DNA of 64,000 bases from Endomicrobiia bacterium (GCA_039630545.1 JBCNUU010000001.1:60052-124051); one strand, 5' to 3'; positions 3,401 through 64,000 are shown, numbered from the stretch's first letter. Program-made: numbers and translations. The notes: a model not told the origin generated them from the sequence alone.

Positions 3401-3406
3401 TTATAT

Positions 3407-3955: not shown

Positions 3956-3964
3956 GATAAAAAA

Positions 3965-4453: not shown

Positions 4454-4481
4454 TTTTTTAAAAATAATTTTTGGAGGAAAT

Positions 4482-6374: not shown

Positions 6375-6425
6375 ATTTTTTCATATCTTTTTTTCAGAAA
6401 TTTTATTTTTAAGTTCTTCTCTTAA

Positions 6426-7892: not shown

Positions 7893-7895
7893 AAG

Positions 7896-41758: not shown

Positions 41759-41789
41759 ATTATTTTAAAAAACAAAACATATAAGGATC

Positions 41790-42516: not shown

Positions 42517-42537
42517 AAAATAAGAAAAATATAAAAA

Positions 42538-43725: not shown

Positions 43726-43730
43726 TTGTC

Positions 43731-44948
43731 ATGAAAAAAATAGTAGTCAACTCAGTTCCTCTTCTATCTCCCTTAACCGGTGTAGGAAGATACTTATTTA
43801 GCATTCTTGAAAATATAGAACAACTTGACAAAGTAAATAAATATTACTTCTACTACGGAATAGGAAATACTGATAAATTTTTTAAAAGGAAACCTAATTT
43901 TTGGGAAATTAGTCCATGGAGTAAGTTTTCAATTATTGTTAAATATTCTATTCCTGGGGTAAAATCTATCTTTAATTTTTTTATGATAAATAAGTTTCTT
44001 CACACTTCGTTTGGATATAAAACCGAACGTTTTGTGAAGCGTTTCATAAAATTTTACTTAAGACTACTGTTTCACTATGATAAAAACCATTACGACATAT
44101 ATTTTGAACCAAACTTTATCCCATTAGATGAGATTAAAGCAAAAAAGATTGTCACTACAGTGCATGATTTTTCTTTTCATTTATATCCCCAATGGCATCC
44201 TGAAGATCGTGTTTTGTTCTTTAGAAAAAATTTTTGGAGAAATATTTATAAATCAGATATAATAGTTACAGTTTCCAATTATGTAAAAGAAGAAGCTAAA
44301 AGATTGCTTAAAGGATATAAAGGAGAAATAGTTACAATCTACAATGGATATGATAAAAACAAGTTTTGTTTAATAGAAAAAAGTGTTTTACAAGAATATA
44401 GAAATAAAAAAAATCTTCCTGAAAATTTTCTTTTATTTGTTGGAAGTGTAGAACCAAGAAAAAATCTTTTAGGACTTCTTAAAGCATATAGTTTGTTGCC
44501 AGAATACATAAGAAAGGACATAAAACTTTTAATTGTTGGTTTTCGTGGATGGAAAAATAAAGAAGTGATGCAGATTATTTCTAAACTTAAAAATGATATT
44601 TTTTATATAGGATATGTTGATGATTTTGAGCTTCCTTTGCTTTATAACTTAGCTTTGGCAAGTATTTATCCATCTTTCTATGAGGGATTCGGTTTGCCTA
44701 ATATAGAAGCGATGGCATGTGGCTGTCCTGTTGTCACTTCTGATATACCTTCAATTAAAGAGATATGCCATGATGCTGTATATTATGTAAATCCACATGA
44801 TATTGAAAGCATAAAAGATGGTATAATAAAGATAGTTGAAGATGAAAAAATAAGAGAGACTTTAAAGGCAAAAGGGCTTAAACATGTAGAGAAATACTCT
44901 TGGAAAGAATCAGCCAAAAAACATATCGAATTATTTAACAAGCTATAG
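43731..44948 (+). CDS. family 4 (GT-B) glycosyltransferase
   Basis: C-terminal GT1/GT4 core (FVGSVEPRKN, EGFGLPNIEAMACGCPVVTS), 405 aa. Confidence 0.75.
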   Translation: MKKIVVNSVPLLSPLTGVGRYLFSILENIEQLDKVNKYYFYYGIGNTDKFFKRKPNFWEISPWSKFSIIVKYSIPGVKSIFNFFMINKFLHTSFGYKTERFVKRFIKFYLRLLFHYDKNHYDIYFEPNFIPLDEIKAKKIVTTVHDFSFHLYPQWHPEDRVLFFRKNFWRNIYKSDIIVTVSNYVKEEAKRLLKGYKGEIVTIYNGYDKNKFCLIEKSVLQEYRNKKNLPENFLLFVGSVEPRKNLLGLLKAYSLLPEYIRKDIKLLIVGFRGWKNKEVMQIISKLKNDIFYIGYVDDFELPLLYNLALASIYPSFYEGFGLPNIEAMACGCPVVTSDIPSIKEICHDAVYYVNPHDIESIKDGIIKIVEDEKIRETLKAKGLKHVEKYSWKESAKKHIELFNKL

Positions 44949-44950
44949 TA

Positions 44951-46912: not shown

Positions 46913-48029
46913 CATAAAAGTAGCTTTAGTTCATGATTGGCTTACTGGGATGCGAGGAGGAGAAAAGGTGCTTGAGGCGTTGTGTGAAATTTTTCCGTCA
47001 GCGGATATTTATACTTTAGTTTATATTCCAGGTAGTACTTCAAAAATTATAGAAGACAGAAAAATTCATACATCATTTATTCAGAAATTTCCTAATATTG
47101 AAAAAAATTATAGATATTATCTGCCAGTTATGCCGTTAGCAATATCTCAATTTGATCTTTCTGGTTATGATTTAGTTATAAGTTCAAGCCATTGTGTAGC
47201 TAAAGGAGTAAAAATTGGAGATAAAACACTTCATATATGTTATTGTCATACTCCTATGAGATATATCTGGGATATGTATGATTTATATTTTGGTAAAAAC
47301 TCCAATTCCTCTTTTTTTGCAAAATTAGCTATGAGAGTAATTAGAAAACATCTTCAACACTGGGATGTTAAAACCTCACAAAATGTAGACTTTTTTGTTG
47401 CTAACTCCAACAATGTAAAAGAAAGAATAAAAAGAATTTATAATCGTGATTCTTTTGTTATTTATCCACCGGTGAATACAGATTTTTTTGTCCCTGCCAG
47501 TTTTAAAAATAATCCAGACTTAAAGAAAGATAGTTATTATCTTGTTGTATCTGCATTTGCTCCTTATAAAAAAATTGATATCGTAATAGAAGCATTTAAA
47601 ATGTTAAAAAGAAATTTAAAAATAATTGGTTCTGGTCAGCAGGAATTCTATTTGAAGAAATTAGCTAAAAAACATAACAATATAGAATTTTTAGGATGGG
47701 TTGATGATGAAAAGTTAAAATATTACTATCAAAATGCAAAAGCTTTGATATTTCCTGCAGAAGAAGATTTTGGGATAGTACCTGTTGAAGCCCAAGCGTG
47801 TGGTATTCCTGTTGTGGCTTATCGCAAAGGTGGGGTTTTGGAGACGGTTATTGAAAATCACACGGGTATTTTTTTTGATACCCAAACACCTCAAGCTGTA
47901 AAAGAAGCAGTTTTAAAGTTTGAGAAAATGGTATTTGAACCTCAGAAAATAAGGCAACAAGCATTGAAATTTAGCAAAGAAAGATTTATAAAAGAAATAA
48001 AAGAATTTATAAAAGAAAAGTTGATTTAA
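46899..48029 (+). CDS. family 4 (GT-B) glycosyltransferase
   Basis: N-terminal KVALVHDWLTGMRGGEKV, C-terminal EDFGIVPVEAQACGIPVVA; ATG 46899 inside track ORF. Confidence 0.75.
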   Translation: MNLTNIKVALVHDWLTGMRGGEKVLEALCEIFPSADIYTLVYIPGSTSKIIEDRKIHTSFIQKFPNIEKNYRYYLPVMPLAISQFDLSGYDLVISSSHCVAKGVKIGDKTLHICYCHTPMRYIWDMYDLYFGKNSNSSFFAKLAMRVIRKHLQHWDVKTSQNVDFFVANSNNVKERIKRIYNRDSFVIYPPVNTDFFVPASFKNNPDLKKDSYYLVVSAFAPYKKIDIVIEAFKMLKRNLKIIGSGQQEFYLKKLAKKHNNIEFLGWVDDEKLKYYYQNAKALIFPAEEDFGIVPVEAQACGIPVVAYRKGGVLETVIENHTGIFFDTQTPQAVKEAVLKFEKMVFEPQKIRQQALKFSKERFIKEIKEFIKEKLI

Positions 48030-48030
48030 T

Positions 48031-49410
48031 ATGAACTCTATAATTTTAGCTGGAGGAGCAGGTACTCGTCTGTGGCCATTATCAAGAAAATTTTCACCTA
48101 AATTTTTGTTAAAAATTGGTTCTTCCAGGTATTCTTTGTTTCAACAAACATTTCTTAGGGTAAAAAAATTTACTGCTTTAGAGAAAATTTTTGTTGTGGT
48201 AAATAGAGAATATAAGTTCTTAATAAAAGAGAATCTTCAAGATTTAAATATAGATTTCCCACTGGAAAATATAATTGCCGAACCCGAGGTAAGAAATACT
48301 CTTGTTGCTGTTGGTTTAGGTTGTTGGTTTATAAAAAATAAATTTTGTGATGAAGAAATAGTAGGAGTTTTCCCTTCAGACCATATTATTAAACCATCAG
48401 GTGAACTTGTCTCATATGTTAAAAAAGCAGAAAAACTGGCAGAAGATGAAAACATAGTGTTATTCGGAATAAAACCCAATAGAGTTGAGCCAGATTATGG
48501 TCATATAAAGGTAAAAAATAAAAGTAAAAATAATGTTTGCTATAATGTTGAAGAATTTATAGAAAAGCCTGAGTATAACTTGGCTAAAAAACTGATGAAA
48601 AATCAAAATATATACTGGAATAGTGGAATTTTTGTTTTTAAAATAAAAACCTTTTTTGAAGAATTAAAAAAATTTCAAAATGATTTATATAAAAATTTTG
48701 AAAAATTTAACTATGATGAAGTTGATAAATTGTATGAAAAGCTAAAACCTATATCAATTGATAAAGGATTGATTGAAAAAACAAATAAGTTAAAACTCAT
48801 CCCTATTCAAAAAGTTTTCTGGGATGATGTTGGCAGCTGGATATCTTTTGAAAGAATTTACAAAAAGGATAAAAATAATAATGTTATTCTTTCAAAAAAT
48901 TTTGATTTAGAGAGTACAAATTCAATAATAGTAGGAGACCAGAGTCGAATAATAGTTACAGCTGGATTAAAAGACACAATTGTAGTTGATACAGAAGATG
49001 CTTTATTAGTTTTAAATAAAAGTTATATCTCCAAAATCAAACAGATAATTGAAAAAATAAAAGATGAAACAACAAAATACCACAAAACCACAAAAAGACC
49101 GTGGGGATTTTATACAGTTTTAACAAAAAAAGACAACTACAAGGTAAAACTCATAAATGTACAACCTAACAAAAAAATAAGCTTACAAAAACACTTAAAG
49201 CGCAGTGAGATGTGGTTTGTAGTATCAGGTGTGGCTAAAATTACCTGTAATGGAAAAACAAAGTATGTCAAAAATGGAGAAACTTTTAAAGTAAATAAGG
49301 GTGTTCCTCACAGAATAGAAAATCCTTCCTCTACAGATATTCTTGAGATAATAGAAGTAAGCAGAGGTAAGTATCTGGATGAAGATGATATAGTAAGGTT
49401 AGAAAAATAG
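48031..49410 (+). CDS. manC: mannose-1-phosphate guanylyltransferase / mannose-6-phosphate isomerase (bifunctional type)
   Basis: N-terminal NTP-transferase (ILAGGAGTRLWPLS), C-terminal cupin (HRIENPSSTDILEIIEV), 459 aa. Confidence 0.8.
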   Translation: MNSIILAGGAGTRLWPLSRKFSPKFLLKIGSSRYSLFQQTFLRVKKFTALEKIFVVVNREYKFLIKENLQDLNIDFPLENIIAEPEVRNTLVAVGLGCWFIKNKFCDEEIVGVFPSDHIIKPSGELVSYVKKAEKLAEDENIVLFGIKPNRVEPDYGHIKVKNKSKNNVCYNVEEFIEKPEYNLAKKLMKNQNIYWNSGIFVFKIKTFFEELKKFQNDLYKNFEKFNYDEVDKLYEKLKPISIDKGLIEKTNKLKLIPIQKVFWDDVGSWISFERIYKKDKNNNVILSKNFDLESTNSIIVGDQSRIIVTAGLKDTIVVDTEDALLVLNKSYISKIKQIIEKIKDETTKYHKTTKRPWGFYTVLTKKDNYKVKLINVQPNKKISLQKHLKRSEMWFVVSGVAKITCNGKTKYVKNGETFKVNKGVPHRIENPSSTDILEIIEVSRGKYLDEDDIVRLEK

Positions 49411-51157: not shown

Positions 51158-51871
51158 ATGGGAAAAACAAAATTTTTAATATTTTTTCTGCCACTGTTTA
51201 TTAGTATTATATATGGTGGAATTATATGTGACAGATGTGGGATTGAAAATCCTGATGAGAATATGTTCTGTCAAGATTGTGGTGCGAGGTTAGTCAAATC
51301 TAAATCAACAATCTTTCATGATGAAAAGCCAGCTTCTCAAAATCAAGAAAAAATTTGTCTCTCCTGTAAAACAAAAAATTTAATTTCTGCTAAATTCTGT
51401 CAAAATTGTGGTGTAAAATTATCAGAAATTTCATATAAAAAAGAGCAGTCTTTAAAGTTCACAAATATAGATGCTTCAAAAAAAACAGGGGCTATTGTTT
51501 TTTCTATGCTGTTCCCAGGAGCAGGACACATCTATTTAGGTCATAAGCAAGAAAAAATAAAAGGGATAATTCTTGCCTCTGCATCTGGGGGTTTGATTTT
51601 AAGTAGCATCTTAATGTGGAGTTATGCCGAAGCAAGATATAAAGAATATGAAGACACCAAAGATGAGTTTGCCTATGAAGATTATTCATCAAGTATAGAT
51701 ATTGTAAACTTTTTGCTTGTGACACTTGCTGGTGTATGGGTTTATAATGTAGTAGACATCTTCATTACTACTTCAAAAGTTGGCAAATTTTCACATTTTG
51801 GTAAGGATTTTGAAATTTCAATAAATTTTTCGTCTAAGAAGTTTGAAGTATGTTTTGCTAAAAAATTTTAA
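51158..51871 (+). CDS. double zinc-ribbon membrane protein with TM2-like segment
   Basis: Two CxxC...CxxC pairs (CDRCG...CQDCG; CLSCK...CQNCG), then hydrophobic FPGAGHIYLG segment resembling TM2-domain motif. Confidence 0.4.
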   Translation: MGKTKFLIFFLPLFISIIYGGIICDRCGIENPDENMFCQDCGARLVKSKSTIFHDEKPASQNQEKICLSCKTKNLISAKFCQNCGVKLSEISYKKEQSLKFTNIDASKKTGAIVFSMLFPGAGHIYLGHKQEKIKGIILASASGGLILSSILMWSYAEARYKEYEDTKDEFAYEDYSSSIDIVNFLLVTLAGVWVYNVVDIFITTSKVGKFSHFGKDFEISINFSSKKFEVCFAKKF

Positions 51872-51898: not shown

Positions 51899-53137
51899 AT
51901 GAAGCATAAAATAATAAAAATAGCTACAGCAATACTGGTTGTTGTGTTGTTTTTTAGCTGTAGCCAAAGAAAAACTGCTCCATCGAGTGCACAAACCCAA
52001 ACATACTCATTAAATGTGATTATTAACCCTCCCGGTGCAGGAACAGTTACACTTAATCCTTCCGGACCCACATACAACGCAGGAACAGTTGTAACACTTA
52101 CAGCCACCCCACACAGTGGATATGTGTTTTCTAGTTGGGCTGGAGATTTAACCGGGACAACAAATCCTGCTACTATTACTATGAACTCAAACAAAACTGT
52201 AGTAGCTAACTTTACTCAAACCGGAAGTGGCGGTGGTGGCAGTGGTGGTGGCAGTGGTGGTGGCAGCGGTGGTGGCGGCGGTACTACTACTACTTATACT
52301 CTTAATGTATTAATTTCTCCACAAGGAGCGGGAGCAGTTACCTTAAATCCTGCAGGGGGGACGTATCCTGCTGGGACTCAAGTTACACTTACAGCAACTC
52401 CTTATTCAGGTTATATATTTTCATCTTGGTCAGGTGACCTAACAGGAACTTCAAATCCTGTAACAATTATTATGAACTCTAATAAATCTGTAACAGCTGT
52501 TTTCACTGCCTCTGGTGGTGGCAGTGGCGGTGGCGGTGGTGGTGGCGGCGGTGGTGGTGCTGATACTGCAAAATATAATTTTGAGACTACTGCTCAAGGT
52601 TGGCAGGCACAAACTTGGAGGGATTCTCAAGGAATTACTGCTGTAGCAAGAGATACATCAAAAGCAAAAAATGGAGTGGCAAGCTTAAGGTGTACGGTAA
52701 ATATACAGGGAGGAGATGAAACAGTTTTACCTAACACAAAAGGTGAAGCATGGGTAGATATGCAAAATAATCGCCCTTCTGGAGTTACTACTGTGCCTGT
52801 AAATTTATCTAATGCAACTGTTTCTGTATGGGTATTCTTACCAGATGAAGCAGCAGGAGATCCACAAAAACCAAATGGTATTCAGATTTTCTTTAAAGAT
52901 AGCAATTGGAAAAATAGATATAGTTCTTGGAAAAACATAGGTAATCCACCTTATGGACTTGAAACGAATACTTGGGTGCAGATTACGATTGATTGTGCTA
53001 CTGAACAGTGGGCATATGATGAAGCAGGATTTGATATGACTAAAGTTAGAGCAGTTGGTGTAAAAATTGGAACTGGTGGTGGCTCAACAGCTACATTTAA
53101 TGGCTACATCTGGATTGATTCTTTTGATTGGCAGTAA
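51899..53137 (+). CDS. surface lipoprotein: 2 divergent InlB-type B-repeats + Gly/Ser linkers + C-terminal ~190-aa beta-sandwich-like module
   Basis: Lipobox LFFSC; two ~75-aa repeats with TYTLNV...GYxFSSWSGDLTGT..NP.TI.MNSNK.V.A.FT pattern; poly-Gly/Ser linkers; C-terminal module shared with next gene. Confidence 0.6.
   Translation: MKHKIIKIATAILVVVLFFSCSQRKTAPSSAQTQTYSLNVIINPPGAGTVTLNPSGPTYNAGTVVTLTATPHSGYVFSSWAGDLTGTTNPATITMNSNKTVVANFTQTGSGGGGSGGGSGGGSGGGGGTTTTYTLNVLISPQGAGAVTLNPAGGTYPAGTQVTLTATPYSGYIFSSWSGDLTGTSNPVTIIMNSNKSVTAVFTASGGGSGGGGGGGGGGGADTAKYNFETTAQGWQAQTWRDSQGITAVARDTSKAKNGVASLRCTVNIQGGDETVLPNTKGEAWVDMQNNRPSGVTTVPVNLSNATVSVWVFLPDEAAGDPQKPNGIQIFFKDSNWKNRYSSWKNIGNPPYGLETNTWVQITIDCATEQWAYDEAGFDMTKVRAVGVKIGTGGGSTATFNGYIWIDSFDWQ
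52001..52510 (+). repeat. intragenic tandem B-repeat units (2 copies) in 51899 gene
   Basis: Direct protein/DNA repeat of ~225 nt unit. Confidence 0.6.
52223..52282 (+). repeat. GGT/GGC/AGT trinucleotide microsatellite (20 Gly/Ser codons) followed by (ACT)4
   Basis: ggaagtggcggtggtggcagtggtggtggcagtggtggtggcagcggtggtggcggcggt then actactactact. Confidence 0.9.
52514..52558 (+). repeat. GGT/GGC trinucleotide microsatellite (15 Gly/Ser codons)
   Basis: ggtggtggcagtggcggtggcggtggtggtggcggcggtggtggt. Confidence 0.9.
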
Positions 53138-53151
53138 TTTTTGTGTTGAAA

Positions 53152-53200
53152 AGAGGGGGTACTCTTTTAATGAAGCGAGAGTGCCCCCTCTCTTTAAATT
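53152..53200 (+). terminator. rho-independent terminator-like hairpin after 51899 gene
   Basis: 14-bp GC-rich stem AGAGGGGGTACTCT / AGAGTGCCCCCTCT (one G-U), 12-nt loop, followed by CTCTTTAAATT. Confidence 0.6.
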
Positions 53201-53338: not shown

Positions 53339-55348
53339 ATGAAGAAATTGTTTATTTTCTTTCTAACTGTAAATTTTATATTATTTAATTTCTTAAGTTG
53401 TGCTAAAAAATCAAAATCACCAGTAACTACATCTACAACCACTTACACGTTAGTTGTGGTATGTAATCCTCAGACTGGCGGTGAGGTAGTATTAAATCCT
53501 CCAGGTGGAACATATAATGCTGGTACAGTTGTTACTATTGCTGCTTCTGCAAAAAGTGGCTATGTTTTTAGCGGATGGAGTGGTGATTTGACAGGTACAC
53601 AAAATCCTGTTACTGTTTTGATGGATAGAAACAAAACAATAGTAGCTAATTTTACACAACAAAGTACAACTGCTTATTATACACTTACAGTTAATATCTC
53701 TCCAGCTGCAGCAGGAGTAGTTGTACCTTCAAGTGGTACATATGCTGCTGGGACACAACTTACTTTAACAGCCACTGCTTCAAGCGGGTATGTGTTTAGT
53801 CACTGGAGTGGAGATTTAACAGGCACAACAAATCCTGCACAAATCACTATGGATTCAAACAAAGTAATTACAGCTAATTTTACACAGCAGCAAGTAAGCA
53901 CCTACACTCTTACTGTAAACATAAATCCTTTAGGTGGTGGTACTGTACTATTTAATCCTCCTGGTGGTACATATCCTGCTGGAACACAAGTGACACTTAC
54001 AGCTAAGGCAAATCCTGGTTATGTGTTTAATAACTGGAGTGGTGATGCAAGTGGGAATTCTGCCTCTGTGAGTATCGTGATGGATTCGAATAAAACTGTT
54101 ACGGCAAACTTTACTCAGACAGGTGGTGGAGGTGGAACGACTTATACTCTTCTTGTTAGTATAGAGCCCTCTGAAGCAGGAACGGTTTCTTTGAATCCAG
54201 CTGGTGGAGTGTATACGGCTGGAACTGTGGTGACACTTCAGGCACACCCTGAAAGTGGTTGGGTATTTGAAGGATGGAGTGGTAATCTTTCTGGCAACCA
54301 AAATCCAACTACTATTACAATGAATTCAAACAAAGTAGTTACAGCTAATTTTACCAAACAGCAGACCACCTATACGCTTACTGTTAACATAAATCCAGAT
54401 GGTGGTGGAAATGTTACGTTGAATCCTGCTGGTGGCACATATACTGCTGGAACGCAGGTGACCTTAACAGCTACTGCTTCAAGTGGGTATGTATTTAGCC
54501 ACTGGAGTGGAGATTTAACAGGAACAACAAACCATGCAACGATAACAATGAACTCAAACAAAGTAGTTACAGCTAATTTTACCCAACAGCAACAGCCCAC
54601 CTATACACTTACTGTTAACATAAATCCAGCTGGTGGTGGAAATGTTACACTGGATCCTGCTGGTGGTACATATACTGCTGGACAGGTAGTAATATTAACG
54701 GCTACTCCTTCAAGTGGATATCAGTTTTTAAACTGGACAATAGGACAAAATACAGTAACCTCAAACCCAACTACAGTTACAATGGATTCTAACAAAACAG
54801 TAACAGCTAATTTTGAACAAGTAGGTTCTGATACAGCAAGGTATAATTTTGAAACATCTGTTCAGGGTTGGGTCCATCAGACATATACTGATTCTCAAGC
54901 AATTACAGCGGTATCAAGAGATACATCAAAAGCAAGATATGGTCAGGCAAGTTTAAGATGTACAGTTAACCTTCAAGGAGGACATGCTAACTATTCTAAA
55001 GGTGAGACATTTGTAGACCTTCAAACGCCGACTGATTTAAGTAATAAAATAGTTACAGTATGGGTATGGGTCCCTTCTGAAACAGTTGCTACACCATCTA
55101 ACGGTATCCAGGTATTTTTTAAAGACTCAAATTGGAATAGTAAATATAGTAGCTGGCGCAATATAGGTGGTGATATTACTCCTGGAGTATGGAATCAGAT
55201 CTCAGTAAATACAGCTAATGAAGTATGGGGTTGGGATAATGGTTGTAATTTGTCCCAGGTAAGGTTGGTTGGAGTGAAGATAGGGACCGGAGATGGTTCA
55301 ACTTTTACATTTAATGGTTATATTTGGATTGATTCTGTAAACTGGTAA
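53339..55348 (+). CDS. surface lipoprotein: 6 tandem divergent InlB-type B-repeats + C-terminal beta-sandwich-like module (paralog of 51899 gene)
   Basis: Lipobox FLSC; six ~75-aa repeats each ending ...MNSNK.VTANFTQQ; C-terminal 190 aa ~50% identical to C-terminus of 51899 protein (YNFET..QGW, SLRCTVN.QGG, NGIQ.FFKDSNW, FNGYIWIDS). Confidence 0.65.
   Translation: MKKLFIFFLTVNFILFNFLSCAKKSKSPVTTSTTTYTLVVVCNPQTGGEVVLNPPGGTYNAGTVVTIAASAKSGYVFSGWSGDLTGTQNPVTVLMDRNKTIVANFTQQSTTAYYTLTVNISPAAAGVVVPSSGTYAAGTQLTLTATASSGYVFSHWSGDLTGTTNPAQITMDSNKVITANFTQQQVSTYTLTVNINPLGGGTVLFNPPGGTYPAGTQVTLTAKANPGYVFNNWSGDASGNSASVSIVMDSNKTVTANFTQTGGGGGTTYTLLVSIEPSEAGTVSLNPAGGVYTAGTVVTLQAHPESGWVFEGWSGNLSGNQNPTTITMNSNKVVTANFTKQQTTYTLTVNINPDGGGNVTLNPAGGTYTAGTQVTLTATASSGYVFSHWSGDLTGTTNHATITMNSNKVVTANFTQQQQPTYTLTVNINPAGGGNVTLDPAGGTYTAGQVVILTATPSSGYQFLNWTIGQNTVTSNPTTVTMDSNKTVTANFEQVGSDTARYNFETSVQGWVHQTYTDSQAITAVSRDTSKARYGQASLRCTVNLQGGHANYSKGETFVDLQTPTDLSNKIVTVWVWVPSETVATPSNGIQVFFKDSNWNSKYSSWRNIGGDITPGVWNQISVNTANEVWGWDNGCNLSQVRLVGVKIGTGDGSTFTFNGYIWIDSVNW
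53441..54826 (+). repeat. intragenic tandem array of six ~225-nt B-repeat units
   Basis: Units 2 and 5, and 3, 5 and 6, share long near-identical DNA stretches (e.g. ...ctgcttcaagygggtatgtrtttagycactggagtggagatttaacagg...). Confidence 0.8.
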
Positions 55349-55397: not shown

Positions 55398-56303
55398 ATG
55401 AGAGGTTATTGCAGATTTAAGCCCTTGTTGCTTTATATTTTTTTATTGTCATTATCTTTTTATGTTTTTTGTAGCGGATTTAGTGGATTAAAACTGTTTT
55501 TTGGAGCAAGAACCACTGGGTTAGGTGAAAATTTATGTGGTTTATCAGAGGAAGTAGAAAATATTTACCACAATCCTGCCGGTCTTGTGGGAATAAATCC
55601 TTTTGAATTTAAAATTATGTATTCAAATTGGGTAGCAGATATAAATAGAAGTGATTTGATTTTAGCAAAATCTTTTAAAAATAAATCCGTGGTTGCTTTT
55701 TCTTTTAACTATATGTGGACAAGACTTGAAAGTGAATATAATAGTAGTGATTATTTTTCTTTAATACACACTATAGCATACGCAAGAAAATTAAATAAAA
55801 TTTATTTTGGATTAGGCACAACAATAGTATATGAATCTTTTTCTTTAGAAGAGGGTTATAATCTAGCTGGAGGTTTAGATTTAGGTGTACTTATCAGAAA
55901 ACAAAGAGCTGCTTTAGGCTTTAGTGTAAAACAAATAGGAAAAAGTTTTGTTTATATGGGAGAAGACTCAGAGATTTTGCCTTTTAATTTAAACTGTGGA
56001 GTAAGTTATATAATGCCTAACAATTTTGTTGTAGTTGGTAACATAAAATACAATTTGGATGGTTTAATTTCATTCCATACAGGATTAGAAGTTCCTCTAT
56101 ATAGAGGAATAAAAGAAGAAATAGCTATAAGAGCAGGCAATGTATTAAAATTACCATCCCTTAGTGATTTGCCTATAATTTCAAATTTTAGATTAGGTTT
56201 TGGATTTAGAAAAGAAGGTTTAAAGATAGATTATTGTTTGGTGCCTCTTGGAGAAAATATAGGTTTTTTTCATTATATATCTTTAGGATTTATTTTTTAT
56301 TAA
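55398..56303 (+). CDS. PorV/PorQ-family-like outer-membrane beta-barrel protein
   Basis: Signal peptide; N-terminal FFGARTTGLGENLCGLSEEVENIYHNPAGL matches PorV/PorQ hallmark (GAR..G.G.A......a.yWNPAGL); 301 aa; C-terminal aromatic residue. Confidence 0.45.
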   Translation: MRGYCRFKPLLLYIFLLSLSFYVFCSGFSGLKLFFGARTTGLGENLCGLSEEVENIYHNPAGLVGINPFEFKIMYSNWVADINRSDLILAKSFKNKSVVAFSFNYMWTRLESEYNSSDYFSLIHTIAYARKLNKIYFGLGTTIVYESFSLEEGYNLAGGLDLGVLIRKQRAALGFSVKQIGKSFVYMGEDSEILPFNLNCGVSYIMPNNFVVVGNIKYNLDGLISFHTGLEVPLYRGIKEEIAIRAGNVLKLPSLSDLPIISNFRLGFGFRKEGLKIDYCLVPLGENIGFFHYISLGFIFY

Positions 56304-56307
56304 AGTT

Positions 56308-58518
56308 ATGAAGAAAATATTTTTTATAACAACCTTAATAATACTTAATTCCAACATTTTTTTGTTTTCTCAACTTAAACCTAACCAGCTTAGAGTAAAT
56401 GGAAGAAATTTATTAGATGGAAATGGACAAGTGATTCGTTTGGTTGGAATAAATCATGGGCATGCATGGTATAGAGGATATTTAGGTTCTGCTCTTCAGG
56501 GTATAAAAAGTTGGGGTGCAAATTCTGTAAGAGTAGTTCTTTCTTGCGGTTATAGATGGACAAAAATTCCAGCTCATGAAGTTTCTGCAATAATAAGTGA
56601 AGCAAGAAATTTAGGTTTTAAAGCAATAGTTTTAGAAGTACATGATACAACAGGTTATGGAGAAGACAGTGCTGCATGTGATCTACAAACAGCAGTCAAC
56701 TACTGGATTGAGATAAAGAATGTTTTAATTGGACACGAGGATTTTGTAATAATAAATATAGGCAATGAACCATGGGGTAACCTCAACACCAGCGGCTGGG
56801 TGAATGCTACCAAAAATGCAATATCTGCTTTAAGAAATGCCGGGTTTACTCATGTTATAATGGTAGACGCACCTTGTTGGGGTCAGGATTGGAATAACAC
56901 TATGAGATATAATGCCACAAATGTGTTGAGTGCTGATACTTTGAATAATACAATTCTTTCGGTTCATATGTATGGTGTCTACAATACAGCTTCAAAAGTT
57001 CAGTATTATTTAAGTTATTACTATAATAATAATTTACCACTATGCATAGGCGAATTTGGACATTATCACTCTGATGGAGATCCTGATGAACAAGCAATAG
57101 TTAATTATGCAAGACAGTACGGAATGAGTATATTTGGATGGTCCTGGTGTGGAAACAGCGGAGGAGTCGAGTATTTAGATATGGTATATAATTGGAATCC
57201 GAATAGTCCTACTAATTGGGGAAGCTGGTATAAAAATAATGCATTAAGTGATCTTCCTCAAACTTATACTATTTCTATCAACATAAATCCTCAGAACTCA
57301 GGAAGTGTCACTTTATCTCCACCAGGTGGAACATATACAGCAGGCACTCAAGTTACACTTACAGCGCAGGCTAACAGTGGATATGTATTTAGCAGCTGGT
57401 CAGGAGATATAACTGGCAGTCAAAACCCGGCCACTGTTGTTATGAACTCAAATAAAAATATAACTGCTAATTTTATTCAATCAACTGTTAACACTTACAG
57501 GTTATCTTTAAGTATTTCTCCTTCCGGTTCAGGTGTGGTTTATCTAAACCCTTCAGGTGGGTTATATATAGCAGGAACTCAGGTGACTCTTACAGCACAA
57601 CCTAACAGTGGTTATGTATTTAACAGCTGGAGTGGGGATCTCTCTGGTAGTCAGAATCCCGCAAGTATTGTTATGGACTCCAACAAAAGTATTACAGCAA
57701 ACTTTGTACAATCAGGTTCAACCAGTATTACTTATACTTTAAATATAACTATTTCACCACAACAAGCCGGAAAAGTAAGTGTGAATCCGGTTGGAGGTGT
57801 GTATCAAGAAAATACACAGGTTGAAATTACTGCCTTTTCAAACAATGGATATGTGTTTTCTGGATGGAGTGGTGATATAACAACTAATGAAAATCCTTTA
57901 AAAATCACTATGAATTCTAACAAAAACATAACAGCTAATTTTTCCTCTATAAGTAGCACAACTTACACAGTTACAGTTATAATTTCACCTCAAAATGCTG
58001 GATTTGTGTACTTGAATCCAATAGGGGGTGTATATACAGCCGGGACTTTACTTACACTTGTTGCCTATCCTCAAGATGAGTATGAATTTTTAAACTGGTC
58101 AGGAGATATTTTCTCAGAGGCCCAAACTGTAAGTATTGTGGTTGATTCTAATAAAGTAATACAAGCAAATTTTATTTTAAAATCTTCAACAGCTCCTTTT
58201 TCAGATCAAAAAGAATTTTTAGATTCTATAATTATTCTTCCTCCTTCTGAAAACCCTTTTTATTTAAACAAAACCAACAGCTATGTTAAACTAAAATATT
58301 ATCTTAAACAGTCAATGTCTGTAAGGCTGAAAGTATATGATGTGTCTCTAAATTTAGTAAGGATCACAGAATACCAACACAATCAAGCTGGAGAAAATTA
58401 TTTCATATTTGATGCTAAAGATGACGAAGGATATCTTTTGCCAGCAGGACTTTATTTGTATCAAATTGAATCTCATAGTTCAAAAAGTAGTTTTGGTAAA
58501 ATTTTTATAGTAAGGTGA
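56308..58518 (+). CDS. secreted GH5 glycoside hydrolase (mannanase-like) + 4 B-repeats + T9SS-type C-terminal sorting domain
   Basis: SPI signal; GH5 catalytic motifs NEP (IINIGNEPWG) and GEFG (LCIGEFGHYH); four ~75-aa B-repeats (57262-58190); C-terminal ~95 aa matches Por-secretion CTD pattern (ENPF...YDvsLNLV...G.N...fDAKDDEG..LPAGLYLYQIE...KIFIVR). Confidence 0.7.
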   Translation: MKKIFFITTLIILNSNIFLFSQLKPNQLRVNGRNLLDGNGQVIRLVGINHGHAWYRGYLGSALQGIKSWGANSVRVVLSCGYRWTKIPAHEVSAIISEARNLGFKAIVLEVHDTTGYGEDSAACDLQTAVNYWIEIKNVLIGHEDFVIINIGNEPWGNLNTSGWVNATKNAISALRNAGFTHVIMVDAPCWGQDWNNTMRYNATNVLSADTLNNTILSVHMYGVYNTASKVQYYLSYYYNNNLPLCIGEFGHYHSDGDPDEQAIVNYARQYGMSIFGWSWCGNSGGVEYLDMVYNWNPNSPTNWGSWYKNNALSDLPQTYTISININPQNSGSVTLSPPGGTYTAGTQVTLTAQANSGYVFSSWSGDITGSQNPATVVMNSNKNITANFIQSTVNTYRLSLSISPSGSGVVYLNPSGGLYIAGTQVTLTAQPNSGYVFNSWSGDLSGSQNPASIVMDSNKSITANFVQSGSTSITYTLNITISPQQAGKVSVNPVGGVYQENTQVEITAFSNNGYVFSGWSGDITTNENPLKITMNSNKNITANFSSISSTTYTVTVIISPQNAGFVYLNPIGGVYTAGTLLTLVAYPQDEYEFLNWSGDIFSEAQTVSIVVDSNKVIQANFILKSSTAPFSDQKEFLDSIIILPPSENPFYLNKTNSYVKLKYYLKQSMSVRLKVYDVSLNLVRITEYQHNQAGENYFIFDAKDDEGYLLPAGLYLYQIESHSSKSSFGKIFIVR
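57262..58190 (+). repeat. intragenic tandem array of four B-repeat units
   Basis: Four direct ~230-nt repeats encoding TYT..I.P...G.V.LNP.GG.YTAGT.VTLTA.PNSGYVF.SWSGD..G..NP....M.SNK.ITANF. Confidence 0.8.
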
Positions 58519-60209
58519 AAATTCTTTTTGTTATATTTTTATCTTTTCTTGTTTATTTAAACACATTAAAAAATGATTTTGTTTGGGATGATACATCAAT
58601 TATTGTAAATAACAAATGGATTAGAACTCCCTCAAATTTTTTTAAATTTTTTATATTGAAAGAAACTATTTCCGAAGATACAAGAACAAAGCCATACATA
58701 TATAGACCACTTGTAACCTTTAGTTATTCTTTAGATTATTCAGTCTGGAGACTTTCTTCGTTTGGTTATCATTTAAGCAATATAATTTTTCATACAGTTA
58801 CGGTTATATTTTTATACATACTTACAGATTTGATTTTAAATAACAAAAAAATTTCTTTATTTAGTAGTGTAATTTTTGCAGTGCATCCTGTGCATACAGA
58901 GGCAGTAAGCTGGATAAAAGGCAGAGCTGATATTTTGGCTTGTATGTTTTGTATGTTATCTTTTATATTCTACATATTGTATTTCATTAGAAATGAAAGA
59001 TTTATTTATTACTTTTTGTCCTTATTGTTCTTTATTTTTGGATTATTTTCAAAAGAATCAGCAGTTGCTTTAGTTGGTATTATAATTGCATATGATATAA
59101 TTTTTAAAAAGAAATTTCTCTTTAAGAGTTATATTTTGTTTATAATAGTTTTATTTCTTTACATTATTTTAAGAAAAAGTGTATTAGGAAGCAATCTACC
59201 TTATAGATGGTGGGCAGGAAGTCAGTATTATACTTTTTTAACTGCTATGAAAGTTCTAGTTGAGTATTTCAGGTTGTTGGTTTTTCCTATAAATTTATGT
59301 GCTGATTATGTCGTTGAGATTTCGTTTAATGTATTTGACTTAAAAGTAATTTTTTCAATTCTATTTTTAATTTTTTTAATTACTATTTCATTTATTTCTA
59401 TTAAAAGATTTTCAATTTTTTCTTTTTGCATTTTTTTTATCTTGATTTCATTACTACCAGTTGCAAATATTATTTTCCCGATTGAAGTATTACTGGCAGA
59501 AAGATTTTTATATATGCCTTCTGTTGGCATGTGTTTATTTTTTGGCTGGTTAGTGTATAGAATTTTAACAAGAAACAAAACATTGGGATATATAGTTTTT
59601 GTTTTAATTGTGCTTCCTTATTCAATTTTAACCTGTAATCGCAACAAAGACTGGAAAGATGAATTTAACCTGTGGTCTAAGACAGCAAAACAATTTCCTG
59701 ATAACTTTAGAGCACACAACAACTTAGGTATGGAGTATGAAAAATCAGGAAATTTAGAAAAAGCTCTTTACCACTACAAAATAGCATCAAACCTCACACC
59801 TAATCTGTCATGGTTACACAATGATAAGAACCAGACATATGCAAGAGTATATAATAATATTGGAAATGTTTATTTCAAACAAAAAAATTTTAACACAGCA
59901 ATTGAATATTATAAAAAAGCTATTGATTTAGATCCTTTATATTCTTCACCTTACTTTAACTTAGGCTTATTATATAGAAATAAAGGTTTACTGGATTTAG
60001 CTATCTATTACTACAAAAAAGCAATAGAACTTAATCCGTATGTTGCAGACTACTATAACAATCTTGGAGTGGTGTATGCATTAAAGGATGATTTTAAAGA
60101 AGCTATTATTCAATATGAAAAAGCAGTGGAGTTGTCTTCAGATGAAGATTTTAAAAAACAAGTGCTTAAAAATATAGAGATAGCAAAAAATTTTTTGAGG
60201 AGAAAATGA
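58515..60209 (+). CDS. TMTC-like GT-C glycosyltransferase (PMT_2/DUF1736-like membrane domain) with C-terminal TPR repeats
   Basis: GTG start overlapping upstream stop (GGTGA); ~10 TM; DD motif in first loop (FVWDDTSIIVNN); 5 C-terminal TPR units (AHNNLGMEYEKSGNLEKALYHYKIA..., YNNIGNVYFKQKNFNTAIEYYKKAIDLDP...). Confidence 0.6.
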   Translation: MKILFVIFLSFLVYLNTLKNDFVWDDTSIIVNNKWIRTPSNFFKFFILKETISEDTRTKPYIYRPLVTFSYSLDYSVWRLSSFGYHLSNIIFHTVTVIFLYILTDLILNNKKISLFSSVIFAVHPVHTEAVSWIKGRADILACMFCMLSFIFYILYFIRNERFIYYFLSLLFFIFGLFSKESAVALVGIIIAYDIIFKKKFLFKSYILFIIVLFLYIILRKSVLGSNLPYRWWAGSQYYTFLTAMKVLVEYFRLLVFPINLCADYVVEISFNVFDLKVIFSILFLIFLITISFISIKRFSIFSFCIFFILISLLPVANIIFPIEVLLAERFLYMPSVGMCLFFGWLVYRILTRNKTLGYIVFVLIVLPYSILTCNRNKDWKDEFNLWSKTAKQFPDNFRAHNNLGMEYEKSGNLEKALYHYKIASNLTPNLSWLHNDKNQTYARVYNNIGNVYFKQKNFNTAIEYYKKAIDLDPLYSSPYFNLGLLYRNKGLLDLAIYYYKKAIELNPYVADYYNNLGVVYALKDDFKEAIIQYEKAVELSSDEDFKKQVLKNIEIAKNFLRRK

Positions 60210-62179
60210 GAGGTTTTTTAATAAGTTTTATTTTTTATACAAATGTATGTTTTTGTTTACCTACTATTAATACAGTGCTGCCTGAAAAAAACAGAGTAGG
60301 TAAATATGAAAAATTTGAATTAGTGGTTGAAATTTCGGCAACATACACAAATCCATATGATCCTCACCAAGTAGACCTATCGTGTGTGTTTTTTTCTCCA
60401 AGTAATAAAGAATGGAGAATATTTGGTTTTTATGACGGGACAAAGTGGAAAATAAGATTTACTCCAAATGAAACTGGAGTTTGGAGCTACAGAGTTTTTT
60501 TAAAAGATCAAACAGGACAAACTGAATCTAATCTTTTAAGCTTTGAATGCATGGAGTCTGATTCCCATGGTTGGATTAAAGTAGCACCTAACAAAAGATA
60601 TCTAATGTATGACGATAATACTCCGTTTTATGGAGTTGGATTTTGTAGAGCGTGGAATTCTCTAAGTGTCCCGTTTGAAACATTAAAAGAGTTTGGAGTT
60701 AACATGATATTAATCTGGGTTGGTCCTCCATGGGTTGGGATGATTGAAAATACTTCAAAAGGTATTGGTATTTATGATCAACAGATATGTTATACAATAG
60801 AAAACTATATTCAGCAAGCAGAAAAAAATAATATCCATATAATACTCTGTTTGTGGCCTCACGATGCTTTAAGAATTCCAGGACAGCCATGGCCATCAGG
60901 AAACTGGGCGAAAAATGCCTACAGTCTTATTACAACTCCAGAAGGTTTTTATTCAGATACATCTACAGTATGGGATTATCAACAAAAACTTTATAGATAC
61001 ATTATTGCCAGATGGGGATATAGCACATCTTTAGCTATATGGAATATAATAGTGGAGATCAATGGAACCACAGGCTACTCTATAAATCCTTCTGCTGCTG
61101 AAGAATGGTGTAAAAGAGTGCATAATTTTTTCAAACAAAACGATCCTTACAAAAAACCTACATGTGGTTCTAAATCAGGCGATCAGTTTTGGAATAACGG
61201 ATACAATATTTTTGATATTGCAGAGATTCATACATATAAGGATAAAAATAATGCTTCAGAAGTAGCAGATACTATTATAACCTATACAAGACAAATGTGG
61301 GCAGGTTTTTTAAAACCAAACTTCGTTGGAGAATTTGGGACAGATGATCAAAATTTACAGCCATTTCATTTACACAATGCTATCTGGGCAGGTTTGTCTG
61401 CAGGAGCAGCTATAACTCCGTTAGATTGGAATGACGGTGGTAGTTGGGGAGATATTACTGATGATATGCTTCAACATATGAAAATTTTTTCAAACTTTAT
61501 AAAAGAAATTGATTTTGTGAATGATGATTTTATACCTGCTAATGTTTCTGTTGTTCCTTCTGGTGAGGTTTTTGGAATGAAAGGGAATAAGTGTTGTTTT
61601 GGCTGGATAAGGAAAACAGATGACACTATTGAGAGAGTATTAACCATTTCAGGAATGACAGATGGCGTATATGAAATGAAGTTTTATGATACATATACAG
61701 GAGATTTTTTTTATATTACTTTAGCAACTTCAACTTATGGATTTTTATCAACAAAAATCCCAGCTATTTCTAAAACTGATTTTGCTTTTAAAGGGTATCT
61801 TAAATTTTCTAATAATCAATCTTCGGGTAACAAAGAATTCACCGTGGAAGGAGAATTACTTAAAATTTTACCATTAGAGAAAAATCCTGTAAAATTTTAT
61901 AAAGATAAAGAAGTAAAAATAAGATTTCTTGTTAATATTCAGATTCCTTCTAAAGTGAAAGTTACTATTTATGATATAAACATGAATTTAGTCAAAATTC
62001 TTACAAGTTCTTCGGATGGTTGGTTAAAAGTTTTTTCTCCATATCAGGAATTTACATGGGATTTAAAAGACGAAAATGGTAGAGAAGTTGACGGTGGTCT
62101 TTATATTTACAAAATAGAAGCAATAAATGATTATAAAGTTAAAAGTAGTAAATTAAATAAAATTATGGTAATAAAATAA
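60206..62179 (+). CDS. secreted DUF5060 + DUF4038 (GH5-like) glycoside-hydrolase-like protein with T9SS-type C-terminal sorting domain
   Basis: ATGA overlap with upstream gene; signal peptide; N-terminal DUF5060-like segment (VGKYEKFELVVEISATYTNPYDPHQVDLSCVF), TIM-barrel-like central region ending FVGEFGTDDQ; C-terminal ~100 aa matches same CTD pattern as 56308 protein (VKVTIYDINMNLVKIL...EVDGGLYIYKIEA...KIMVIK). Confidence 0.6.
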   Translation: MRGFLISFIFYTNVCFCLPTINTVLPEKNRVGKYEKFELVVEISATYTNPYDPHQVDLSCVFFSPSNKEWRIFGFYDGTKWKIRFTPNETGVWSYRVFLKDQTGQTESNLLSFECMESDSHGWIKVAPNKRYLMYDDNTPFYGVGFCRAWNSLSVPFETLKEFGVNMILIWVGPPWVGMIENTSKGIGIYDQQICYTIENYIQQAEKNNIHIILCLWPHDALRIPGQPWPSGNWAKNAYSLITTPEGFYSDTSTVWDYQQKLYRYIIARWGYSTSLAIWNIIVEINGTTGYSINPSAAEEWCKRVHNFFKQNDPYKKPTCGSKSGDQFWNNGYNIFDIAEIHTYKDKNNASEVADTIITYTRQMWAGFLKPNFVGEFGTDDQNLQPFHLHNAIWAGLSAGAAITPLDWNDGGSWGDITDDMLQHMKIFSNFIKEIDFVNDDFIPANVSVVPSGEVFGMKGNKCCFGWIRKTDDTIERVLTISGMTDGVYEMKFYDTYTGDFFYITLATSTYGFLSTKIPAISKTDFAFKGYLKFSNNQSSGNKEFTVEGELLKILPLEKNPVKFYKDKEVKIRFLVNIQIPSKVKVTIYDINMNLVKILTSSSDGWLKVFSPYQEFTWDLKDENGREVDGGLYIYKIEAINDYKVKSSKLNKIMVIK

Positions 62180-62197: not shown

Positions 62198-64000
62198 ATG
62201 AAAAGTAAAATATTAGTTTTTATAAATACAGTTTTATTTGCTTTTTTTTGTTCTGGTTATTCTAAAGATTGGTATGTGCTGGAAGATTTTGAAGGTGTAA
62301 ACTACTGGTCAATAGTAAGCTGGAAAACAGCTACTAAAGCTGTAAGTATTTCAAAAGAAATTTTCTCTGAAGGAGAAAAGGCACTTAAAGTTGATTTTGA
62401 AAATTCCGATTGGTCTGAAAAAGCACAGGTTATGATAGAGCAGTTTTTTGATTTCTCAGGAGTAGAAAAAATTTCCATGGATATTTATAATCCAAATAAA
62501 GAAACACTTCTTACTACAATGGCTTTATGTACCGGTGATAAATGGGAGTGGTATGAATCACCTGAACAAAGGTTAGTTTCTGGATGGAATAAAGAAGTCA
62601 CTTTTAATTTGCGTTCTCCTAACTGGAAAGCAGAAAGAAGCGGATGGAGAAACATAATTAAAGTTGAGAACCTCAAAGATGTAAGAAGAATTACTTTAAC
62701 TTTTGTTGGTGGAAGAGGTCCTGTATATATAGATAATATTAAAGTTTATGGGGAAAAGAAAATTGATAAAATTTCACCCACAATAAAACAGATAGGTGAT
62801 AAGATATTGTTTGAATCGTTTGAAGAAGATAAGACACAATGGAGTATAGCAGGATGGCGCACTCAAGCAGTGGAAGTAAAATTTAACGAAAAATGGGCTA
62901 CCGATGGTAAAAAAAGTTTAGAACTTATTTTTGAAGATGTTACTGACTCTAACAAAGCATCCTACTGTATAGAGGGAGACTTCAATTGGGAGAAAGTCAA
63001 CAGATTTTATATAGATGTGTTTAATCCTCTTAAAAAAAACATAAAAATAAACTTAGCTCTTTCCACAGGTGGTGGTTGGATATGGTATGAATCTCCTGAC
63101 AAAGTGTTAACTCCAGGAGAAAATAAAGATATAGAATTTGACCTCAATGCGAAAAATTTTAAATGTGAAGCAACAAATTGGACTTACTCAAGTTATGTAA
63201 AACATAAGGAGAAAGTAAAAAGAATAGCAATACAGGTTATCGCGCCTCAGGGAGAGACACTTAGTGGCTCAGTAAGTATTGACAACTTAAGAATCACAGA
63301 AGGAGAACCTTTAGTGATACCTGTAGAAATAAAACCACCTAAATATCCTGAGGTAGTAAATCCTTCCAGATACAGTATACCCAAAATCAAATCGATTACT
63401 TCAAATTTAGAAATGGTGGGTCAATATGAAAAGTTTGAACTTACATTAGAAATTGATTCTTATTTTGAAAATCCATATAATCCTAATGAAGTGCTATTAA
63501 CTGGGATTTTTATTTCTCCGGATGGAAAAACATATAGAGTTCCTGGATTTTATTACGAAGATTTTAGAGAAGAAACTGGTCTTTTAAAACCAACTGGTAA
63601 GAAGTACTGGAAGATTCGTTTTTCACCGAATAAAATTGGTAGCTGGGACTATTATGTGGAATTTAAAAATCCAGCAGGAAAAATTGAAAGTAAAAGACAA
63701 AGTTTTGAGTGCGTAAGTTCAAGAAATAAAGGAATAATCGTAGTTTCTGAAAGTAAAAATTACTTTAAATTTATCACTGGAGGAACATATTTCCCTTTAG
63801 GACAGAATGTTTGCTGGGTGACAGCTTCTGATAATTGGAAATACTCTGATTATTTGAGAAAACTTTCGGAAACAGGCCAGAACTGGACTAGACTATGGAA
63901 CTGTCCGTGGGGTTTTATAATAGAATGGGGAGAACCAAGAGGACAGGGGCTTGGAAGATATAATCAAAAAGATAGTTTTGAGTTTGACAGAATAATAGAA
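62198..64000 (+). CDS. lipoprotein with two N-terminal copies of the shared beta-sandwich-like module followed by DUF5060/DUF4038-like domain; 3'-truncated by window edge
   Basis: AGGAGG RBS, ATG 62198, lipobox FFCSG, open frame to 64000; modules at ~62267-62753 and ~62798-63308 share W..S.WRNI and G..YIDN motifs with C-termini of 51899/53339 proteins; DUF5060-like MVGQYEKFELTLEIDSYFENPYNPNEV from ~63380. Confidence 0.55.
   Translation, partial: MKSKILVFINTVLFAFFCSGYSKDWYVLEDFEGVNYWSIVSWKTATKAVSISKEIFSEGEKALKVDFENSDWSEKAQVMIEQFFDFSGVEKISMDIYNPNKETLLTTMALCTGDKWEWYESPEQRLVSGWNKEVTFNLRSPNWKAERSGWRNIIKVENLKDVRRITLTFVGGRGPVYIDNIKVYGEKKIDKISPTIKQIGDKILFESFEEDKTQWSIAGWRTQAVEVKFNEKWATDGKKSLELIFEDVTDSNKASYCIEGDFNWEKVNRFYIDVFNPLKKNIKINLALSTGGGWIWYESPDKVLTPGENKDIEFDLNAKNFKCEATNWTYSSYVKHKEKVKRIAIQVIAPQGETLSGSVSIDNLRITEGEPLVIPVEIKPPKYPEVVNPSRYSIPKIKSITSNLEMVGQYEKFELTLEIDSYFENPYNPNEVLLTGIFISPDGKTYRVPGFYYEDFREETGLLKPTGKKYWKIRFSPNKIGSWDYYVEFKNPAGKIESKRQSFECVSSRNKGIIVVSESKNYFKFITGGTYFPLGQNVCWVTASDNWKYSDYLRKLSETGQNWTRLWNCPWGFIIEWGEPRGQGLGRYNQKDSFEFDRIIE

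Follow-up and report, generated by a model that had tools for sequence, protein, structure and literature searches.

A TMTC-like GT-C glycosyltransferase gene between exported glycoside hydrolase genes in a conserved Elusimicrobiota locus

A 64,000-nucleotide stretch of DNA from an Endomicrobiia bacterium (GCA_039630545.1 JBCNUU010000001.1:60052-124051), belonging to an uncultured Endomicrobia/Elusimicrobiota metagenome-assembled genome and referred to below as the window, was analysed around a gene for a membrane glycosyltransferase of the GT-C type that resembles the TMTC enzymes and carries a C-terminal TPR domain. Coordinates are positions in the window on the + strand, counted from its first letter. 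The gene and the parts of its product are as follows.

58515..60209, + strand: TMTC-like GT-C glycosyltransferase with a C-terminal TPR domain, 564 residues, GTG start
58515..59651, + strand: membrane GT-C module, residues 1-379, with 11 predicted transmembrane (TM) helices and a predicted cytoplasmic N-terminus (AlphaFold2 model, hydropathy, loop charge bias)
58587..58592, + strand: DD catalytic motif D25 D26, in the context NDFVWDD, in the predicted first periplasmic loop (sequence)
59229..59378, + strand: predicted periplasmic TM7-TM8 loop with a juxtamembrane helix, equivalent to DUF1736, residues 239-288 (sub-threshold DUF1736 match, model)
59652..60206, + strand: predicted periplasmic TPR domain of about five repeats, residues 380-564 (Pfam, PDB TPR matches)

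The GTG start overlaps the stop codon of the upstream GH5 gene by four nucleotides (aggTGA/GTGA), and the TGA stop overlaps the ATG of the downstream DUF5060 gene by another four (ATGA), so that both the coordinates and the two overlaps are exactly those given in an earlier note on this DNA. Orthologs of equal length and with an equal N-terminus were recovered at 99% identity (one), 60-63% (six) and about 50% (three). Since these same-length, same-start orthologs keep all family-invariant residues, the open reading frame at 58515..60209 is judged from sequence comparison to be a real gene.

Residues 69-218 match the Pfam family PMT_2 (PF13231) at 29.3 bits against a gathering cut-off of 26.1, and strong matches to about 20 TPR families cover residues ~380-545 (TPR_1, 3e-34). 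TMTC_DUF1736 (PF08409) was found at the expected position, residues 239-288 in the TM7-TM8 loop, but only at 16.4 bits (E 0.009), below its cut-off of 27; of the two profiles named in the earlier note, PMT_2 was thus recovered above threshold and DUF1736 was not. PF08409 is on record for at least 11 of the 120 listed homologs at ~30-33% identity to this protein. No match to PF02366 (PMT) or MIR was reported for the protein in the Pfam scan. A sequence search of the PDB with the whole protein returned TPR proteins only, and the membrane part alone gave nothing even at E<=10; the fold was therefore established from the predicted structure, in which the membrane module has a GT-C fold. Structural similarity figures to known GT-C enzymes were 20.1 for ALG12, 18.1 for both AglB and STT3B, 17.7 for ArnT, 17.5 for Pmt4 and 16.3 for Pmt2. 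The TPR part also resembles PilW, PilF, Tgl, GltE and PorW in NCBIfam and PDB matches. A second TMTC-like paralog within the window was considered and rejected, as none was found.

Conservation was judged over 80 homologs. The acidic pair D25-D26 directly follows TM1; of 80 family members, 78 keep D25 and 77 keep D26, and no ortholog lacks either. Near-invariant residues comprise F22, D25, D26, Y63-R64-P65, D74-Y75, H86, N89, H93, H124-P125, R137, S179, E181, Y251, P258 and A328-E329, all located at predicted periplasmic loops or periplasmic helix ends and all retained in every ortholog. The motifs kept throughout the orthologs are DD, YRP, HPxHTE, GRxD, SKE and AE(R/H)xLY. In the TM7-TM8 loop, Y251 and P258 are invariant, the loop contains 'NLCADY', and the model places a helix at residues 237-256. 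When compared with the TMTC motifs M1-M5 (Eisenhaber et al., 2021; PMC7801869), M1 corresponds to D25-D26, M3 to R137-x-D139 (RxD) and M4 to K180-E181 (KE), while M2 is represented by YRP only, the mannose-contacting SHKS being absent, and the 'DW' of the TMTC loop EL4 is replaced by 'DY' (D264-Y265). Sequence and model together indicate that the protein is catalytically competent, with an intact active site at the periplasmic surface of the membrane.

Eleven TM helices emerge from the model and from hydropathy alike, and the short loops on the presumed cytoplasmic side are rich in lysine and arginine (NNKK, RNER, KKKFLFK, KR and RILTRNK), with six such residues in 17 versus two in 29 for the short periplasmic loops. 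This charge bias, combined with the odd number of helices, puts the N-terminus in the cytoplasm and the TPR domain in the periplasm; the DD loop and the TPR domain of ~185 residues are accordingly predicted to share the periplasmic side. The topologies determined experimentally for TfpW and the TMTCs agree with this arrangement. The earlier note had described a TMTC-like GT-C enzyme and had named a cytoplasmic DD motif as a finding that would overturn its proposal; the fold, the 11 helices, the DD motif and the C-terminal TPR domain bear the description out, and the predicted topology does not overturn the proposal. We regard the identity of the protein as a PMT_2/TMTC-like GT-C enzyme with periplasm-facing topology as highly probable.

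The genes around the glycosyltransferase gene are listed below.

51158..51871, + strand: double zinc-ribbon membrane protein, whose gene heads the block conserved in orthologous loci at 61-63% (DZR/Zn_Ribbon_1)
51899..53137, + strand: lipoprotein with two B-repeats and a C-terminal Mann_GBD-like module (Flg_new_2 x2, Mann_GBD_bact, lipobox LFFSC, Gly-rich linkers)
53339..55348, + strand: lipoprotein with six B-repeats and a C-terminal Mann_GBD-like module (Flg_new_2 x6, Mann_GBD_bact, lipobox NFLSC)
55398..56303, + strand: PorV/PorQ-family-like outer-membrane protein, 4 nucleotides before the GH5 gene (NCBIfam PorV_fam 83.2 bits, cut-off 90; PorQ 5.6e-13)
56308..58518, + strand: exported GH5 beta-mannanase with four B-repeats and a C-terminal FlgD_ig/type IX secretion system (T9SS)-like domain (Cellulase/GH5 2e-34, Flg_new_2 x4, FlgD_ig)
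60206..62179, + strand: exported DUF5060-type glycoside-hydrolase-like protein with a C-terminal domain of the same kind (DUF5060 1e-15, FlgD_ig)
62198..64000, + strand: 5' part of a gene for a Mann_GBD and DUF5060 protein of ~1083 residues, cut by the window end (translation, DUF5060 match)
58198..58515 (GH5 protein) and 61841..62176 (DUF5060 protein), + strand: two Ig-like C-terminal domains (FlgD_ig, likeness to T9SS C-terminal domains)

The GH5 catalytic domain matches beta-mannanase 1bqc at 6e-89 and is preceded by a signal peptide identified by eye, and the DUF5060 protein has a solved homolog in 9gmj (2e-32). In relatives (L007, L001 and L002) the locus continues with genes for a 536-residue protein, a solute-binding protein, two ABC permeases and a GH130 enzyme. 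What the earlier note called a cargo operon is a beta-mannan utilisation locus. The zinc-ribbon gene at its upstream end is syntenic in L001, L002 and L008; the product has a C-terminal membrane segment and a weak DUF5683 match, and may be a regulator or an anti-sigma-like factor.

From 55398 on, the intergenic distances are 4, -4, -4 and 18 nucleotides, and the terminator scan found no terminator-like site between these genes. The PorV-like gene, the glycosyltransferase gene and the genes of the two Sec-exported glycoside hydrolases form one tightly packed transcription unit. The sole intergenic terminator-like hairpin of the locus lies at 53177-53192, between the two B-repeat lipoprotein genes, and the first of these may therefore be a separate or attenuated transcription unit. 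As a whole, the promoter and terminator scan of this AT-rich DNA was uninformative, with fewer promoter-like sites than in shuffles.

The glycosyltransferase gene had been described as lying between genes for two secreted proteins with C-terminal domains (CTDs). The GH5 and DUF5060 neighbours fit this description; their CTDs match the T9SS sorting models only below threshold (score/cut-off: TIGR04183 17/23, PF18962 16.1/27, TIGR04131 12.9/35), so that neither reaches the level of T9SS cargo by TIGR04183, PF18962 or TIGR04131. FlgD_ig scores 34.5 in the GH5 protein and 25.2 in the DUF5060 protein against a cut-off of 27. The two CTDs match each other and are similar, below threshold, to the C-termini of PorU and PorZ (E about 1e-4 to 1e-6; 2e-6 to 4e-4), and we describe them as Ig-like domains that are T9SS-type by resemblance only. 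No description of a T9SS in Elusimicrobia was found in the literature.

Two other features ascribed to the repeat proteins need correction. The B-repeat proteins further upstream, which had been counted among the CTD proteins, carry the lipoboxes LFFSC and NFLSC and are lipoproteins instead; and the strings quoted as Thr/Ser-rich linkers are the T-rich first strands of B-repeats, the actual linkers being Gly-rich (GGGSGGG) and no Ser/Thr run exceeding six residues. Ser/Thr-rich linkers were accordingly rejected as a substrate signature. B-repeats of the InlB type have a beta-grasp-like fold and not a beta-sandwich.

The ortholog loci examined were L001-L010 from genomes and assemblies and L037-L040 from metagenomes, spanning 49-99% identity and at least five lineages. 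The core order PorV-like gene, GH5-B-repeat-CTD gene, glycosyltransferase gene and DUF5060-CTD gene was found in every one of them, the PorV-like gene included, which upholds the linkage to flanking exported proteins claimed in the earlier note. Across these loci the junctions of the glycosyltransferase gene range from -4 to +5 nucleotides upstream and from -4 to +11 downstream, and in the closest loci the gene begins 0 to -4 nucleotides after the exported-protein gene. In the ~50% clade the surroundings of the core are rearranged, a B6-like gene and a gene for a 541-residue protein having moved. A reciprocal test from the DUF5060 side used an alignment-based metagenome scan, a single-sequence scan with the DUF5060 protein having given no match: all four close DUF5060-CTD orthologs are preceded by the glycosyltransferase gene (4/4), and none of the distant DUF5060 homologs is (0/27). 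Among 185,579 species genomes only three encode a homolog at >=49% identity, and all three are syntenic, which argues that the gene travels with the locus and is not a housekeeping gene. No ortholog was found outside the mannan locus. The association of the PorV-like, GH5, glycosyltransferase and DUF5060 genes is real and conserved, and it is limited to one small clade.

Beyond these orthologs the family is very large: the membrane domain alone retrieves 78,189 cluster representatives (50% identity) at E<=1e-3, where the ortholog representative scores 493 bits and the next match only 269. Homologs at <=43% identity, examined in many phyla, had no B-repeat, CTD or PorV-like neighbours. The genes around 21 distant homologs are a mixed set without a dominant LPS association (among 144 neighbours UbiA 6, radical SAM 6, N-methyl pilin-like 6, GDPD 4 and GT2 4), and in two loci they include type IV pilin genes directly upstream. 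On these grounds an ArnT-like enzyme universally linked to lipopolysaccharide (LPS) genes, an outcome that the earlier note had set against its own proposal, was rejected.

Several members of the wider family have neighbourhoods worth recording in their own right. In L015:214-2591 (Omnitrophica) and L026:9336-11713 ('Bacterium BMS3Abin06'), a type IV pilin-like gene with the N-terminus KGFTL[VI]E lies on the same strand 66-75 nucleotides upstream of a TMTC-like GT-C/TPR gene, the layout of pilA-tfpW, and in L017 four pilin-like genes precede the homolog by 2.8-4.2 kb. Among the nearest outgroup homologs, one with 38% identity in the membrane domain (L070:125-8419) is located between an EPSP_synthase-family (MurA-like) gene, which overlaps its start, and mreB-mreC-mreD-PBP2-rodA; this gene order gives a hint that the branch in question may act in connection with the cell wall.

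Other parts of the window also contain genes related to glycan transfer. A pilM-pilN-pilO-(162-residue protein)-pilQ operon in the region 1743..8630 is directly followed by two genes. The first encodes a 488-residue polytopic membrane protein with an O-antigen-ligase/PglL-like motif recognised by eye (GAGLGSF…HSYFLHIFVETG) and a C-terminal TPR, and the second (7896..8630) a GT2 of 244 residues. This pair of a putative pilin O-oligosaccharyltransferase and a lipid-sugar synthase may represent a second candidate protein-glycosylation module in the window. An O-antigen or surface-glycan-like cluster at 40248..49410 encodes an ABC-2 Wzm/Wzt pair, an AZOBR_p60025-family 'cell surface glycopolymer formation' protein, two GT4s, a 653-residue Wzy_C ligase-like protein and ManC (GDP-mannose), and in relatives it does not keep synteny with the mannan locus. 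The gene at 9603..11573, which lies downstream of one for a ROK kinase, encodes a 656-residue protein with a signal-peptide-like N-terminus, for which no Pfam or NCBIfam match was obtained at the thresholds used; by eye it resembles a large beta-rich outer-membrane protein, possibly LptD-like.

As the best reading of these observations we tentatively propose, with a confidence somewhat short of even, that the enzyme is dedicated to O-glycosylation of the exported proteins of its locus. The donor would be a monosaccharide on polyprenyl phosphate, synthesized at the cytoplasmic face and flipped, as for TMTC, TMEM260, PMT and TfpW, and the sugar would be transferred to Ser/Thr residues of the co-expressed exported proteins during their transit through the periplasm. 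The GH5-B-repeat-CTD enzyme and its DUF5060-CTD counterpart would be the candidate acceptors, perhaps along with the B-repeat lipoproteins, and the TPR domain would recruit them. Surface-exposed mannan-degrading enzymes would probably benefit by resisting proteases, by being more soluble, or by becoming competent for anchoring or for outer-membrane export. A more specific version is distinctly more doubtful: the TPR domain of a cargo-dedicated TMTC-type O-glycosyltransferase would read the CTD or the B-repeats, and in Elusimicrobiota the PorV-like-dependent export of these enzymes to the surface, or their anchoring there, would require prior glycosylation.

Characterised systems lend this proposal some support. 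The TPR domain of TMEM260 is both necessary and sufficient to recruit the acceptor peptide, and we accordingly read the TPR domain found here as a possible acceptor-recognition module. In Pseudomonas aeruginosa, the gene of the GT-C/TPR protein glycosyltransferase TfpW lies immediately 3' of the gene of its substrate, pilA, and in the present family the pilin gene 66-75 nucleotides upstream of two distant members is a layout consistent with a protein acceptor. In Cytophaga hutchinsonii, periplasmic glycosylation is reported for the CTDs of T9SS cargo, cellulases among them, with effects on export and anchoring. A candidate DPMS/GtrB-like donor synthase is encoded at 7896..8630; the best matches of this GT2 are polyprenyl-phosphate glycosyltransferases (DPMS 5mlz, 5e-16; PpgS, AglJ and ArnC).

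Several observations weigh against a dedicated protein O-glycosyltransferase. The only candidate GT2 is 50 kb away, beside a different membrane/TPR protein, and no donor-synthesis or flippase gene was found in the mannan locus itself. The long Ser/Thr-rich linkers favoured by PMT-type enzymes are not present. Polysaccharide-export scaffolds, among them BcsC, PgaA and AlgK, carry TPR domains too. The nearest outgroup homologs occupy housekeeping neighbourhoods (murA-[GT-C]-mreBCD-pbp2-rodA and mfd-surA-pdxA), so a tie to secreted proteins is no general trait of the family. Finally, all syntenic loci belong to one Endomicrobia/Elusimicrobia clade; they are not independent and may partly reflect inherited gene order.

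Among the other explanations, the strongest, which we nevertheless consider unlikely, is that the acceptor is a glycan or lipid and that the enzyme decorates, in the periplasm, a cell-surface glycopolymer or glycolipid, such as LPS/O-antigen or the anchor of the CTD proteins. Such decoration could tether the exported hydrolases, or could shield the cell's own mannose-containing surface glycan from the secreted mannanase. The structural similarity to ArnT is near-equal, T9SS cargo in Bacteroidota is anchored via LPS-linked sugars, and the O-antigen-like cluster with Wzm/Wzt, GT4s, the Wzy_C ligase-like protein and ManC lies only 2-18 kb upstream. This cluster, however, is not part of the conserved block, the gene before cstA being manC in the window but carB in L001 and L002, and the locus lacks the partners of three-component glycan modification (a GtrA-like flippase and a GtrB-like GT2). 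Moreover, the TPR glycosyltransferases compared here (TMTC, TMEM260 and TfpW) act on proteins, as do the TPR-bearing OGT and SPY.

It is less probable still that the enzyme serves periplasmic protein O-glycosylation in general, with broad specificity, or is a housekeeping GT-C, and owes its position to an accident of gene order inherited in one lineage, without any particular bond to the flanking proteins. The size of the family, the housekeeping contexts of the nearest outgroups and the phylogenetic non-independence of the syntenic loci would all be compatible with it, yet the core and its tight junctions persist down to 49% identity despite rearranged surroundings and a differing upstream flank, and every ortholog recovered lies within the locus. 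A non-catalytic role, in which the protein works mainly by its TPR domain, as a periplasmic scaffold or chaperone that delivers CTD cargo to the PorV-like outer-membrane protein, and uses its GT-C module as a membrane anchor, would suit a gene placed between two CTD genes after a PorV-like gene and the frequency of TPR proteins in envelope machines, some of which the TPR part resembles, but it is very improbable, as the retention in all orthologs of every near-invariant family residue, clustered on the periplasmic face, indicates a preserved active site and not a degenerate anchor.

A dedicated protein O-glycosyltransferase at this locus would be a new variant rather than the new system envisaged in the earlier note, since TfpW is an experimental bacterial precedent; periplasmic glycosylation of the CTD cellulases of C. 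hutchinsonii is reported, and the association is limited to one small clade. The very large size of the family and the existence of substrate-adjacent GT-C/TPR protein glycosyltransferases such as TfpW are already known. We found no functional study of bacterial TMTC-like GT-C/TPR homologs in the literature, nor any description there of a TMTC-like enzyme between CTD glycoside hydrolases beside a PorV-like gene in an Elusimicrobiota polysaccharide-utilisation locus. For most family members genomic context gives no hint of the acceptor, whereas here it names three or four concrete candidate substrates. If the proposal is correct, an uncultured Elusimicrobiota lineage would glycosylate its surface glycoside hydrolases, with a bearing on whether Elusimicrobiota use a T9SS-like route of export or anchoring. 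Its more specific version would make the enzyme the first TMTC homolog of bacteria whose natural protein substrates can be identified, and would connect O-glycosylation from a lipid-linked sugar to a T9SS-like pathway outside the FCB group. The proposal would also offer a tractable bacterial model for acceptor selection by the TPR domain in TMTC/TMEM260-type enzymes, which are encoded by human disease genes. Should the acceptor be a glycan or lipid, the result would still be the first functional assignment for a branch of a large family.

Among known systems, the eukaryotic TMTC1-4 (GT105) share with the protein the N-terminal GT-C module of 11 TM helices, the DD in loop 1, the YRP, RxD, KE and D-aromatic motifs, the TM7-TM8 juxtamembrane helix and a non-cytoplasmic C-terminal TPR domain. 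The protein described here is bacterial and shorter, with about five TPRs, a sub-threshold DUF1736 and no SHKS in M2, and the cadherin EC domains that serve as TMTC substrates are not encoded at this locus. Prokaryotic TMTC homologs have been mentioned previously (PMC7801869). TMEM260, the human O-mannosyltransferase of IPT domains, likewise has an 11-TM GT-C core followed by a luminal TPR domain, but with an extra Rossmann-like luminal domain between the two, and no sequence-level match to it was seen.

An acidic pair in loop 1 is common to the PMT/POMT enzymes (GT39, including actinobacterial Pmt) and the present protein, as is, presumably, the use of a polyprenyl-phosphate-sugar donor. In actinobacteria and fungi, PMTs glycosylate exported proteins including glycoside hydrolases. 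They differ in having a luminal MIR beta-trefoil and no C-terminal TPR and in preferring long, unstructured Ser/Thr-rich stretches, and PF02366 is unmatched here. ArnT also lacks a TPR domain; it modifies lipid A and is encoded in the arn operon with donor-synthesis genes, none of which is present in this locus. The glycosylation of T9SS cargo in Bacteroidota resembles the present case in that polysaccharide-degrading enzymes with Ig-like sorting domains and a PorV-family protein are involved, but it relies on genome-wide en bloc oligosaccharide systems (N-/O-glycosylated CTDs in C. hutchinsonii), with no TMTC-like GT-C among the cargo genes.

TfpW differs in its genetic surroundings, as the neighbours here are CTD glycoside hydrolases and the locus has no pilin gene or D-Araf (DPA) pathway gene. 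The likeness to TfpW drawn here is one of architecture: TfpW is an inner-membrane GT-C protein for which 11 TM helices are predicted, whose N-terminus lies in the cytoplasm, whose first periplasmic loop carries a DDx motif and whose C-terminal TPR domain is periplasmic, and its gene, like the one described here, directly follows that of an exported protein, which for TfpW is its pilin substrate.

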